DNA of 33,234 bases from a virus (lineage: Duplodnaviria; Heunggongvirae; Uroviricota; Caudoviricetes): positions 1 through 33,234 of IMG/VR virus record IMGVR_UViG_2585427777_000018, one strand, 5' to 3'. Positions 18,001-27,000 of the stretch are shown here, one piece after another. Every line of letters starts with the position of its first letter. Within the stretch, counting starts at the first letter, position 1. Position numbers: made by a program.

Positions 18001-21000
18001 CCCCGCCAGCGCCGGTAGTGCCGGAAGAAGCAACTCCGGAAAACGTAGAAATGCTCTCTGGCTATGTTTCCACGTACAAATTAACCGATAGCGAGCGCGA
18101 TATTGCTGCCGAAATATGGAACGCCTGCCGCGCCGCCATGCTTCAGTCCGGAAACTTTCGGGAAAATAAAGATTCGTCAACCAATAATTTTCGGAAAATC
18201 CCGGAAGCGTCAACCAGCTCTCCGGTAACTCCGGATGGTTGGATAAGCTGTAGTGATCGAATGCCAGAAATGGGAGAGCGACAATACTATGTGTTAGCAG
18301 CTGACTTTAAAAACAACTACCCACCAAGCATCCCCAACACTCAGGTCGGCGTATATGGCGACTGGTTTAATGATGGCAATCCCACTTGGGATGACGGTGA
18401 TGGCGAAGACCTGCATCTCAAAGAAGTAACCCACTGGATGCCGCTACCAGAACCGCCGAAGGAGGTACGCCAATGACCTAGCCTGAAGCATTTGCAATTG
18501 TAGTGGCTGCCATTTCGATCGCACTGATTGTTTTTGCGATTTGCCGCTGGGGGTAAAATAGTTCACCTGCATGGAGATTTGATGCCGGGGAATTGTGGGG
18601 GAGCATTCAAACCTCTCCCCTTCCCGGTTAAAGACTCCATTGCTTTGCGGTCAGAGAGATACATCAGCTTCATCAGCTTAATGAAACGCATAGATCCGCC
18701 ATGCTTTTTCAGCAAATACGCTGCCATTTGCGCAACTTTTTCTTCATTAAACATAAATCGGCTCTCTGTCTCACATGAAATACTCTTTCTGACTATATGT
18801 TAATAGCTCCGGTTATTACAGGTTAATGTGTGTTTATTTCTTAATCAGCCCCGCACCTCCGTACGGGGCCATTTCTGTTAATCCACTCCCACTTTTTTGT
18901 TGTACTCGCGGTTAAACCGATCCACGGCAACCTTCATATCCCGCTCTACCGATTTCACCATCGCCGCCTGCTGCGCCAGACTGAGAGAACTGTCGGCATA
19001 AATGGCATCGCGCTGTTTGCGCAAATCCTTCAGTCTCTTCCGGGTATCCTGCATAAGCCCGTTCATCAACAATTTTCCGTTGTTCTCGTCAATGAACGCC
19101 GTTCTTTCTGCACCGGTCAGACTCTTCAGCTCTGCGTGATACTGCGCAACCTCTGTCATCCGGTCGTACATCTTCTGCTGGTCTGCATACGGCATCACCT
19201 CACCCGAAATTTTCCCCAGGAAGGGCACCTGCTGTTCCGGTATATCAATACCATTCAGCGATTTCACCGCCGCATCCGTGGTTTTGGAAATGAAGCGCCC
19301 TGTCCCTCCGGAGATATAGTCAATCCAGAATTTCAGCGATTCCGGTGTGATATCCACCGCGCCGGGACGATACTGGCTGCCACCTGAGAACGCATTCAGC
19401 CAGAATGCAAACGCCTTGTACGCTTCTGGCGTTGAACGTCTTCCCAGCTGGCTGTCAGGTTTTGGTGTACCAAACGGCATGTTCTCCTGGTAAATCTGCG
19501 CCCCCATGAAGTTTTCGTTCATGGCAAGATTCGCAAACGGACGCAGAATTGTCGGTGCTGCATTTTTCAGCAATGCCCCCGACAACGTTTCCGACGTCTC
19601 GCTGCCGATCGGGCTGAATGCCCCCAGGATACCGCCGACAACATTACCGGCAGCACGTGAAGCAGTCAGGTCGCCCGCTGCCACACCTTCAGCTGTATGA
19701 CCAAGCAGGAAGAACACGTTGTACCCGTAAGGCAGAGGAATACTCCAGTACTCACCGGCCTTGCCCCCGAACATCGATTTCATGATGACGAGGTTACGCT
19801 CTTTCACATGAGACGGTACTTTGTCGTACCAGTTACCCCCGTCATCATCCTCCCCCGCCACACTGCGGTTAAGCGAGCCAAGCAGATAACCCGCTCCCAC
19901 AGCTGCAAGCACGATTTTCTGCGGTACATTGAGATTCTTCCAGCGAAGGCGCTCCAGTAACGGCCCGTCGCCATTAAGATGTCCGAGCGTTCTCACCAGG
20001 TTTGCGGTCCCCTGAATGCTGGCGTTGGCAAACATGTACAGCGAGTTCATCAGCATCCCCTGCTCACCACGACGGTTAAAGTTCACCGTCATGTTTTTGG
20101 CAAGAGACGCCGCCTGCTGGCGTGACAAACCGGCATCACGGGCGTGTTTATAGGCAGAAAGACGCAGAGCGTTTTCAACCGCGCCGTTGGCATCCTCGAC
20201 CAGGTTCAGGAACGAATGCCATGCACCGATACTCTGGCCTTTCCATCCGCCCTTCGCCAGCGACACAAGGCGATCCATTTCCTTCTGCTGGCCCTCAAGG
20301 TCACCCATGTTAAACCAGCCGGTTTTACCTCCGTCCTCAACAAACTCTTTCCACACTTTCTGCCACTGTGCGCCTTTGCCCGTGAGGGTTTTACCCCGCA
20401 GACTTGCGTATACGGCTGACATGGCGGAACGGCTGTCTTTCACCACAGCCAGCGCGGATAAGTTATCCAGCTCTTTCAGTTTACCGTCGCTCCTTCCCTG
20501 CTCAGCCTTCAGGTTCATCACCGCAGTCTGCACGTCACGGATGAAGTTACTGACCAGAAATTCCGGGTTATACGACGTGTTCACCGTTGCCAGGAAGCGG
20601 TTAACTTTCCCCAGCGTACGGATTACGGCGTTACTGGTTTCCGGCCCCATGTTCTTCATCGCACGCATCAGGCGCGGATCATGAAGTTTAATGTAGTAAG
20701 TTTTGCCGTCCTTTTTGGTGGTGAAGTAGCGATCCGCCATCATTGCCATCGGCACAGGGCGCTCGACAACTTCGCGAATGGTTTCACCAGTTTCCTGGTC
20801 CTTGCGCTCTGCAATCACACGCATTGTATCCGGTCTGTCATCAGTGAATACCTGCCAGTAATCCTTGTCGGGATTATCCTGTACCAGTTTCAGGAAGGCG
20901 TTACCCACTTCATTTTTGCGATTGCGGATCAGCGATTCACTCAAATCCTGTATCGCCTGAGTGGAAGGAGACTGTGCGCGGGATGCACGCCCCATGGCCT

Positions 21001-24000: not shown

Positions 24001-27000
24001 ACTCATCCCGGCTTTCCGAGAAAAAGAGGTCGCGCCCCTTGCTATCACGAAGCGAATACATCATTTGCGGCGGATCGTAACGTTTTCCCCCGACAAACGA
24101 ATAAACACCGGACCTGACACGATAGCCGGATGCTTTATCAATCTGCAATGCAGAAAGCGTACGGAGCAGTTTCCAGGTATCCGACATGCTCCGTAACCCC
24201 GGCTTACTGTCCATCATATCAGCCAGTTTCGCTGCCGGAATTTTCCCCTCCAGCATACCGGCAGTAGCTTCGCGACCGCTTTTAACAATGCTGATCCATT
24301 TCTGCATGTTACGGCTTGTTCTGGTGGGAATTTCACTGCGATACAACGCCATCATTGCCAGCGTGTCACTATCCACACCTTCTTTTTCCAGACGGGCATA
24401 ATCCGGCTTTCCTTCCGTGCTTCGCCAAACTGTTTCTGATACCCCAGATTTGTGGTGCCAGCAATATTGTCGTACTGCTGCTCACTGTTAAGGTTATCGA
24501 CCTTTTCCATGAAGTTATCTTCAGCCGGGCGGAGGATTTTTTGATAATCCTGCCACCCTTTCCAGGCCACTTCTTCCTGTGCTATTTGCGCTGCTGTTGG
24601 TTTTACTTTGGTATCACCACCGCCTTTTTTTCCGCCCATTATGGCTCCTCAGATAACAAAAAACCCTGCCGGGGCAGGGTCAGAATGTGAATTGCAATTG
24701 GTTTACACACGATAATGAATACAGTGGCAGTCAGACCGCTATCCTGAACACCATGAAGCCATCCTCATCATCCGGCATTCGCTCAAAGCCCAGACGTTTT
24801 CCCAGCCGGATAAATCCCCGCCTTGCCGTGTGGAATTCAGCCCAGCGTCCGCCAGCCAGACGGGTTAATGTCTTCACCTCCGGCAGATAACGCTCAACAC
24901 CGGCACTCCCCGTACACACACCCAGCAACACCAGAACATAAGGGATACCGTCGTCACTGAGCACAGAACGCAGCACCAGAAAACCATCCGGTGCCTCAAA
25001 GCAAAACGCCTGCTTTTTAAGGCAGGCGTCTTTAACTTCATTCATAAATTCAGGGTTGCGGGAATTTCTCACAACACGCTGCATATACCGGAGAATTTTG
25101 TCGTCCATTCTCTCACCAGAAACGAGTGCCATATCGGCTGAACCTCAGCAACCAGTTGACGGGAACTTTCGTCCCCGTCGCGGTTTTCCTACTGCTTACA
25201 CTGTAAGAACGCCGCAAACTCCGCCCCCCCACAAATTCAGCCGGAGCTCACACAGCGAACCGTGTAACATCCAGATGGTGAAGATTACCGTCATACAAAT
25301 TGTGACGGTGATGAGCGATTTTTGCGACATAGCGCTTGCCTCCTGAGTGGAGAGGCGCTAACCTTCTACTTGCTTAAGGTATGATGGTTAGGGCCTCGGG
25401 TTAAACAAAATGTTTGACTCGGGGCCTTTCCCCACATCAGGCCTTCAGGTTCACCTTCCAGCCATCAGCCGAAAGGCACCCGCGCATAATCTACGATTTT
25501 TGCCCTGCACGGGCAACAAAAAACCCGCCATCACAGCGGGTTATGACATGTTGTCGGGTATTACTCAGAATTTCAGGCCAATGCCTGCAAATAAACCATC
25601 AGTTTTCCAGTCGCCAGAGCCTGAGCTTTCATAAGTGACGTCCATAGTAACACTTTCATTGAAGTTAAATTGCGCGCCGACAGACCATGCAATAGACGTT
25701 TTTTTGGTGCTGTTACTTTCAGAAAAACTACCGGCACCATGATTAAGATTGTCGTTAATTTTCAAGTCAGTGGTGACTTTTGCAACCCCCATACCAGCCA
25801 TTGCATACACACTGAGGTATTCGTTAAACCGCCACGAAGGACCGGATAGTAGACTCCAGTAATTAGCCCTGATATCAGTTCTCGCTGAAGCTGCCGGGTT
25901 TTTTACCTCTCGTGATGGAGCGGAAGGCTTAACATCAATAAATGCCTGCGCATTAGTCATGGAGCGCGCCCATGTAAAAGAGGCTATAACACCCAGTTCA
26001 TCAGTTATCTCGTAACGATACCTGATGCTCATCCCCAGGGGGCTTTTGGCTGTGCCGTCATGCCCCCGGGCAATAGCATTTTCGTATTCACCTGATGAAT
26101 TAAAATGGTTTACGTTTACAACATTCCTGAACGTATCCCGGTTATAAACACCCGCGTCTCTAACAAAATCCTTCAGCCCGGGGACGCGGCGTGACGTAGA
26201 GGACGTAATACGGATCTTCGCCATACAATTCATCACCGGACAGGCGTACCGGTTGTAACGGATGAGCCATCTCGTCAATAAACAACGAGAGATTATCGAC
26301 CAGCGCAAGGGTGAACAGGTCAGACTGGTCAATACTCTCAAAACTCGTCGCATCCCCACCGAAAAAATGACGATCATGCGTCGGCGGCAGTACGTCGTTG
26401 ATCATGATTTTTTTGAATTCAGGGTGATCTGCCGTTGGCAGAATGGTGTCATCAGCAACAAAATCACCGCGGGCACCGGCAAGATGCACTATCGCACACT
26501 GGTCTTGCAGGTCGTTAAAGTACGTACCCAGCAGCGTTCTGGCAGAGGATGCCAGGTTGAACTTCGTACGCTGCTGGCTCATACGTCCGCCCGCATCCAC
26601 CAGGTGACGGCCCTGATTAATTTTCAGGGAAAAATCAGCATGGCTGAGGTCTTCACCACGGCCTTCAACGCGCTCATCCCCCATCGTCGGACGTTTAGAG
26701 AGTTTGTGCATGATGCTGAACGTCACTTCATCACCGGCCTGTTTGTTGAGGTCCGTGATTCGCACAACCGGTGCACCTGCACTGGTCTGCTTCGTACTTT
26801 TCTTGTCAGGCGAAACTGCTTTTGGTGCATCCTGCTGTTCAGTGAGAATATTCACCATCGAGCGGTTTCGGTTGGCAGCCGTGAAAAGCGCCACCTGATA
26901 CAGCTTATTCGCCTGGGCTGTTGTTACTGTGGTCATTACGTCAGTACTCCTTCAGTGGTTACTCATCTCGTAAAAATCGCCACCCACACCTTCAGCAGTG

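Follow-up and report, generated by a model that had tools for sequence, protein, structure and literature searches.

A 5.5-kb open reading frame in a defective Escherichia coli prophage: a very probable truncated remnant of the giant polyvalent-protein gene of Shiga-toxin phages

A giant open reading frame (ORF) in the virus record IMGVR_UViG_2585427777_000018 was analyzed. The record, the whole of which (33,234 nucleotides, nt) is called the window here, is the complete draft contig JOST01000161.1 of Escherichia coli 5-366-08_S4_C1. The ORF lies at 18878..24376 on the minus strand and comprises 1,832 codons from the first possible GTG. Based on its homologues, its flanking genes and the mapped deletion junctions, it is very probably the 5'-truncated remnant of a late gene which encodes a protein of about 2,783-2,811 amino acids (aa) in Shiga toxin (Stx)-type short-tailed lambdoid phages (Sepvirinae/Traversvirus). 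The family is named, annotated and partly characterised, and the ORF represents no new system. A first-pass annotation, made from the sequence alone, had assigned the protein to no named family and considered it a candidate for an undescribed system, while it belongs to phrog_616, a named polyvalent virion family. The single uninterrupted frame of 5.5 kb and 1,832 codons described in that annotation was confirmed, and the random expectation for such a frame was about 1e-38 from base composition. Its end had been placed at 24639, which is the start of a separate 95-aa ORF (24352..24639, minus strand) in another frame. The start chosen by public gene callers was the ATG at 24355, giving a product of 1,825 aa.

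The identity of the ORF was revealed by comparison with the PHROGs profiles, in which phrog_616 was matched over positions 958-2793 of 2793 only. The gene is not complete; only its 3' two-thirds are present. The alignments covered residues 952-2783 of both RefSeq WP_032179512.1 (2,783 aa, 99.8% identity) and Stx2-86 gp35 (2,783 aa, 97% identity), residues 970-2806 of VT2-Sakai orf71 (Sp5 ORF80/ECs1242, 2,806 aa, 91% identity), and residues 970-2807 of phi24B vb_24B_48 (HM208303, named gp47 in a 2026 preprint, 2,807 aa, 90% identity); phi24B encodes one protein of about 2,800 residues only. The full-length homologues at the same ynfG chromosomal site were 2,783 aa long. Among 5,426 complete E. 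coli genomes, 427 contained the DNA of the ORF (median, two copies); it was also present in 186 phage records, nearly all of them Stx-converting. Full-length copies were tagged by automated annotation as "LPD5/LPD38 domain-containing protein".

The gene order around the giant gene was also shared. The succession of lom, the 133-aa, 218-aa, 148-aa, 83-aa and 421-aa genes, the giant gene and DUF551/ea22 was found in VT2-Sakai, phi24B and the comparison sequences L001, L002 and L003, the last being an intact-looking prophage at the same ynfG site in strain NCCP15648. In the intact phages, the giant gene is the last and largest of the co-oriented late block and converges with the DUF551/ea22 early-left genes. 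The window ORF is likewise flanked by a lom remnant on one side and by DUF551/ea22 early-left genes on the other, in agreement with the placement between lom remnant and ea region given earlier. This site had been interpreted as a slot for morons or tail-fibre genes; it is the conserved end-of-late-operon position of Sepvirinae phages. The gene was the last of the late block, no autonomous promoter-gene-terminator cassette was seen, and no tail-fibre domain was detected in the ORF with Pfam. Thus the copy agreed with phrog_616 orthologues in identity (90-99.8%) and in shared flanking genes, but not in full length (about 2,783-2,811 aa) or in the possession of its own start. Because only profile positions 958-2793 were covered and a deletion junction was located at 24410, it was assigned to the group as a truncated remnant and was not counted among its functional members.

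Three deletions were mapped by blastn against L001 and L003. At junction 1 (24409..24411, at 24410), 5.3 kb was lost with a microhomology of 1 nt. The 421-aa (ORF79-type), 83-aa and 148-aa genes are gone entirely, the giant gene was shortened by about 940 codons at its N-terminal end, and about 76 codons remain of the 218-aa gene. The 95-aa ORF is a hybrid produced here: it begins like the 218-aa gene (phrog_611), with the native GGAG ribosome-binding site and the initial ~76 codons, and past this stump it enters the giant gene out of frame, until its TGA stop overlaps the ATG at 24355 of the truncated ORF (ATGA, 24352-24355, minus strand). At junction 2 (26183..26188; 2-nt GA microhomology), 9.2 kb was removed, a stretch that starts at the N-terminus of lom, takes in the tail-fibre and tail genes and ends inside the major capsid gene. 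At junction 3 (26957..26962; 6-nt GGTTAC microhomology), 4.35 kb is missing; the portal gene and a 335-aa head gene that lies upstream of the capsid gene disappeared with it, and the large terminase gene lost most of its length. The fragments left on the minus strand were the C-terminus of lom (~25562-26185), 258 aa from the N-terminus of the capsid protein (26160-26936) and 220 aa from the N-terminus of the large terminase (26952-27614). Since portal and tail genes were missing and capsid and terminase genes were truncated, no virion could be built for the giant protein; its late-operon setting is that of intact relatives, and the window prophage is unable to make virions. The remaining ORF is therefore most likely a recent pseudogene in which stops have not yet accumulated.

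The domain architecture of the ORF was that of a polyvalent protein, in which several unrelated domains, including LPD types, the large polyvalent protein-associated domains of Iyer et al. (2017, PMC5512222), are joined in one large polypeptide around a zincin-like metallopeptidase (MPTase) hub domain with a conserved HExxH. In Pfam, LPD5 (aa 96-239; 23660..24091; PF18799, E 2.7e-43), LPD1 (aa 400-479; 22940-23179; E 3.9e-23), MuF_C (aa 789-878; 21743..22012; PF18819, E 8.1e-18) and LPD38 (aa 1515-1720; 19217-19834; PF18857, E 1e-47) were matched, all on the minus strand, and the predicted local distance difference test (pLDDT) score of the AlphaFold2 (AF2) model was mostly >90 across LPD5. 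LPD1 lies within a zincin-like metallopeptidase region of the CLCA_X/polyvalent-protein MPTase type (aa 221-476; 22949..23716, minus strand). The CLCA_X model (NCBIfam NF041907) was matched by aa 221-476 over 243 of 250 profile positions (E 5e-45), with a score of 153.8 bits that stayed below the 260-bit whole-protein cutoff because the model corresponds to a single domain within the giant protein. Strong matches to four Pfam domains and an NCBIfam model were thus obtained within a sequence that had been described as otherwise unrecognisable. The earlier guess of a polyvalent virion-injected protein was well aimed, as it fits LPD5, LPD1, MuF_C, LPD38 and the orthology to an essential virion protein of Stx podophages. 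It had also been considered that the protein might turn out to belong to a well-characterised family devoid of enzymatic domains; the family assignment was largely found, but the family carries predicted enzymatic domains. MuF_C is a PBECR-type domain with a nuclease fold, predicted as a ribonuclease (RNase) or RNA-binding domain (Iyer et al. 2017, PMC5512222).

Pfam was further searched at permissive thresholds with five sub-segments of the ORF and five distant homologues, and no model was found for aa 880-1515, the HExxH regions or the lost N-terminal 973 aa. A match to Arm-DNA-bind_4 (E 3e-4, under the cutoff) was dismissed as chance. The Phage_Mu_F head-morphogenesis domain, by which a MuF/SPP1 gp7 protein would be recognised, was absent from the retained and lost parts in Pfam. 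The sole PADLOC match was to DruE (12 bits, E 0.006), which gave no meaningful assignment to a defence system.

The two HExxH motifs, HEWFH at aa 323-327 (23396-23410, minus strand; followed by D330) and HEIIH at aa 590-594 (22595-22609, minus strand), were present at the residues reported earlier, and such a pair occurred in 11 of 20,000 composition-preserving shuffles of the protein. The HE-x-x-H core of the first motif and the Asp three residues on were invariant in all 106 homologues, down to 34% identity, with the exact HEWFH in 81 of them. An upstream His (AHYEP) and the two Glu of Pfam LPD1 (Glu414 and Glu421) were nearly invariant among these motif-1 homologues. The phage-type MPTase has been described with a conserved His ahead of the motif and an Asp three residues past it (PMC5512222). 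Judged from its conservation in sequence, the first motif marks a zincin active site that is kept across homologues and fits the phage-type MPTase of Iyer et al., and the HExxH helix, the third metal ligand and the three-strand sheet/helix core of a zincin were all recognised in this domain. The position of the conserved Glu residues suggests that LPD1 may be the ligand-bearing C-terminal part of the CLCA_X-type zincin domain.

The second region (aa 520-720; 22217..22819, minus strand) looks like a second, minimal zincin, for which no library model exists. HExxH or HExxxH followed a conserved strand in all six distant homologues that span the region, and in the AF2 model a three-strand sheet preceded the motif-bearing helix. 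The motif was thus retained and the predicted topology fits a zincin, but no significant profile match was obtained: Pfam gave only a weak match to M76 (E 0.17), and Foldseek with this region returned nothing significant. When the two HExxH regions were compared by hhalign, equivalent elements were aligned, though not significantly (P 0.048), and shared ancestry of the two domains was therefore not demonstrated. As to function, autoprocessing of the polyprotein is the role favoured by Iyer et al. for the MPTase (PMC5512222), while a phi24B preprint suggests peptidoglycan cleavage and credits it to MuF-C, called there a "metallopeptidase domain" (bioRxiv 10.64898/2026.04.10.717836). Contrary to this label, the HExxH peptidase domains were placed here between LPD5 and MuF-C.

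What the intact protein does has been addressed in other phages. Mondal et al. (2016) deleted 43 genes of Sp5 and found nine essential for plaque formation and lysogenisation, among them ORF80 (ECs1242, given as 2,793 aa) and the upstream ORF79; the ORF80 deletion left DNA in normal-looking heads that lacked the tail-fibre antibody signal, and the ORF79 mutant likewise had DNA-filled heads without this signal (PMC5155283). In phi24B, gp47 (given as 2,811 aa; LPD5, LPD1, LPD38 and MuF-C) was abundant in the virion proteome and missing from the density in cryo-electron microscopy (cryo-EM), and a capsid-packaged ejection protein was proposed (bioRxiv 10.64898/2026.04.10.717836). An LPD38 polyvalent protein of phage PTXU04 was critical for efficient infection in CRISPRi-ART (bioRxiv 10.1101/2023.09.18.558157). 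The intact giant protein has thus been shown by others to be late, essential for infectivity, abundant in virions and unseen in the ordered structure. It would be packaged inside the capsid and exit with the DNA, delivery into the cell being likewise a proposal. Within such a protein, the C-terminal LPD38 module of about 950 aa may serve packaging or conduit formation, and the block of LPD5, two zincins and MuF-C (PBECR) may provide processing and effector activities.

Several points weigh against the reading of the ORF as the decayed remnant of a gene for an ejected polyvalent protein. Peptidase catalysis by both HExxH domains is a prediction only, the ejection role was proposed for the family from proteomics and absence in cryo-EM, and Mondal et al. 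read their ORF80 knockout as a defect in tail assembly (PMC5155283). At the locus itself, none of the carriers examined showed an interruption of the 5.5-kb frame; the ATGA overlap and the good ribosome-binding site make expression of the truncated protein possible; and neither decay nor purifying selection could be demonstrated, because so few changes separated the carriers. As for the family, a tail-assembly factor, possibly energy-dependent, in place of a capsid-internal ejection or effector protein would account for the Sp5 deletion phenotype, and a match to COG1483 AAA+ was reported along with the proposed role in tail formation (PMC5155283). This AAA+ assignment was not reproduced with Pfam or NCBIfam, and neither of the two returned an ATPase domain, whether for the retained part or for the 973 N-terminal aa that were lost. 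Furthermore, the phi24B protein was abundant when virions were purified but was not seen in the resolved structure of tail and capsid, and the domain set (zincins, MuF-C/PBECR and LPD38) is that of injected polyvalent proteins. In podoviruses, the loss of an internal or core protein can also destabilise tail attachment. A tail-assembly factor is accordingly considered unlikely.

With respect to the locus, the ORF or its truncation might have been an artefact of a draft genome, as the window is a whole draft contig and the junction at 24410 was absent from the 5,426 complete RefSeq E. coli genomes. This concern, already raised with the first-pass annotation, did not hold: the junction, with its 95-aa ORF, was found again on at least 11 independent contigs in public data, from NCBI and from ENA metagenome and Logan SRA assemblies. 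The exact 95-aa protein is deposited in GenBank as KEO24526.1, and the layout of 133-aa gene, 95-aa ORF and large ORF was identical in all eight places examined. The large ORF was called at 1,825 aa on seven of the eight contigs, and at 1,727 aa on the window's own contig. The recurrence of junction ORF and layout across independent scaffolds of ENA metagenomes and across several Logan assemblies of SRA data, the presence of all three deletions in the metagenome scaffold L004, and the 6-nt microhomology at one junction, which is typical of illegitimate recombination (1-2 nt at the others), make an artefact extremely unlikely. Alternatively, the 1,825-aa protein might be functional and domesticated, translated by termination-reinitiation from the 95-aa ORF and acting independently of virions in the lysogen, for example as a protease- or RNase-based exclusion factor or a toxin. 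The ATGA stop/start overlap with the native GGAG upstream of the 95-aa ORF, the retention of both zincin motifs, MuF_C and LPD38, and an ORF intact in all eight places shown, from at least 11 carrier contigs of different samples, are in favour of such a product. The overlap arose by chance at the deletion, and the well-initiated 95-aa ORF could permit some translation of the fragment. On the other side, the carriers differed by 0-6 substitutions in 5,478 nt (7-9 from the full-length alleles), with a nonsynonymous to synonymous ratio of about 1-2:1 among the carriers, and with so few substitutions an open frame is expected by chance; a dN/dS-type comparison including the full-length alleles involved 4-9 substitutions, too few to inform. 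The allele was also absent from the 5,426 complete genomes, two terminator-like hairpins lie upstream (24662-24681 and 25522-25542), and the defence-model search gave the 12-bit chance match only. In addition, the Q antiterminator gene was deleted in the related L004, so that its late operon is probably without activator: comparison of L004 1-50 with L003 42873-43286 showed that the last 22 nt of Q were left and that a DnaD_N-type replication gene abuts the late region. A functional, domesticated product was accordingly judged very unlikely. It is also very unlikely that the defective prophage produces a coupled, N-terminally truncated polyvalent protein of 1,825 aa which a circulating lineage of E. 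coli has kept because its zincins, MuF-C/PBECR or LPD38 act inside the cell, for instance against superinfecting Stx-type phages; if true, the fragment would represent the domestication of an ejection protein into a host factor.

The C-terminal module including LPD38 (aa 881-1832; 18881..21736, minus strand) was conserved in homologues with 34-58% identity over about 95% of its length. Its AlphaFold model was confident, with a pLDDT of 83 and a predicted TM score (pTM) of 0.79, and hydropathy analysis indicated a single, moderately hydrophobic helix at aa 1484-1506. Foldseek of the module against the PDB revealed no relative (best E 0.085, TM ~0.1), and only chance or low-complexity matches were obtained when the ORF and a 46-sequence profile of the module were compared with all PDB chains. 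In distant relatives the module is fused to other N-terminal domains, including the methyltransferase-type PF13489 and PF05175 as well as PF18760, PF18798 and PF18823. We infer from this that the module may be the constant packaging or conduit part and the N-terminal domains exchangeable cargo. Two distant homologues both lay in prophage or phage-like regions, neither adjoining recognisable virion genes. In Salmonella prophages, apparently complete proteins of about 1,600 aa were observed that contain MuF_C and LPD38 and lack LPD5 and LPD1, and a Salmonella fragment annotated as "phosphoribosyltransferase" carries the second HExxH region with 72-77% identity; the giant gene may have been split or rearranged in the Salmonella lineage. 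No cysteine is present among the 1,832 residues of the window ORF, which would suit a protein that unfolds to thread a narrow channel.

Upstream of the ORF, the 133-aa gene (24731..25132, minus strand; phrog_610, unknown function) is a conserved late gene of Stx phages. It had been noted as preceding the ORF, and it is indeed nearby, but it is not a dedicated partner: four genes stand between it and the giant gene in intact phages, and the closeness in the window was produced by the 5.3-kb deletion, which took out three of them and most of the 218-aa gene. Between the 133-aa gene and the 95-aa ORF, a terminator-like hairpin with a T-run (24662..24681, minus strand; -14.6 kcal/mol, z -3.1) was found that had been overlooked before. 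Another hairpin with a T-run (25522..25542, minus strand), reported earlier as a terminator at 25517-25540, is a plausible intrinsic terminator; it stands just downstream of the lom remnant and not next to the ORF. On the 3' side of the ORF, the site at 18847..18868 (minus strand), also called a terminator earlier, is a strong 10-bp GC-rich hairpin (-20.6 kcal/mol, z -5.4) which lacks a U-tract and for this reason is not a canonical intrinsic terminator. In the region as a whole, nine terminator-like sites were counted against 8.3 expected from shuffles, and promoter-like sites were fewer than in shuffles, so that the supposed insulation of the ORF by terminators was not supported. A gene for a Hok/Gef-family toxin (~25196-25330, minus strand) separates the lom remnant from the 133-aa gene, an arrangement shared with related prophages, and no Sok-type RNA reached the Rfam gathering score.

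Bases 1 to ~13,765 of the window are chromosomal and carry rspBA, speG, ynfCDEF and the first 28 codons of ynfG. The last gene (13682-13765, plus strand) is interrupted after codon 28 (MTTQYGFFIDSSRCTGCKTCELACKDFK), which marks the insertion site of the Stx-phage-like prophage; the same site is occupied in other E. coli strains. Within the antirepressor region of the prophage, a match to the Rfam family sRNA-Xcc1 (RF02221) was located at 14609-14694 (plus strand; 73.4 bits against a gathering score of 53 bits), in a stretch of about 475 nt (14467-14940) which is missing from the otherwise near-identical prophages L001 and L003.

The locus itself, a further decayed fragment of a defective Stx-like prophage, carries little weight. 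The family is medically relevant, being conserved in most short-tailed Shiga-toxin phages with a mechanism that is poorly understood; these essential proteins of about 2,800 residues occur in virions and are not seen by cryo-EM. For work on this family, the by-products of the analysis are the relation of LPD1 to the zincin domain, a second HExxH/HExxxH domain without a model, and an LPD38 module without a solved relative. The natural truncation allele could also be used to test the need for the N-terminal third.

Compared with known systems, the closest are the proteins of Sp5 (ORF80), VT2-Sakai (orf71), Stx2-86 (gp35) and phi24B, which have the same domain order and the same end-of-late-operon site beside DUF551/ea22. 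Differently from these, the window copy lacks the first ~940-970 residues, the natural start and the essential upstream 421-aa gene, and the prophage around it has lost its portal and tail genes and keeps the capsid and terminase genes in truncated form only. LPD5, LPD1, LPD38, the zincin MPTase (one or more domains) and MuF-C/PBECR also occur in the polyvalent proteins of Iyer et al. (2017, PMC5512222), and LPD38 was reported there as confined to phage-type polyvalent proteins; no difference in kind was seen, apart from the truncation of this copy and a second HExxH region without a Pfam model. CLCA_X has been described as a zincin-like family, mostly phage- and plasmid-borne, with many long multidomain members, and its motif was written as HExxHxxxD (Lenart et al. 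2013, PMC3650047), whereas the window ORF reads HExxHxxD. MuF_C is common to the ORF and Mu gp30; the MuF head-morphogenesis N-domain and an RNA polymerase domain were not found in the ORF, and the lost N-terminal part gave a weak PHROG match (E 3e-4) to a virion RNA polymerase (vRNAP) family. The N4 vRNAP also bears an MPTase domain (PMC5512222). Together with T7 gp14-16 and P22 gp7/16/20, it offers the parallel in mode of action proposed for the intact giant protein, in which the protein is enclosed in the capsid and leaves it together with the DNA.

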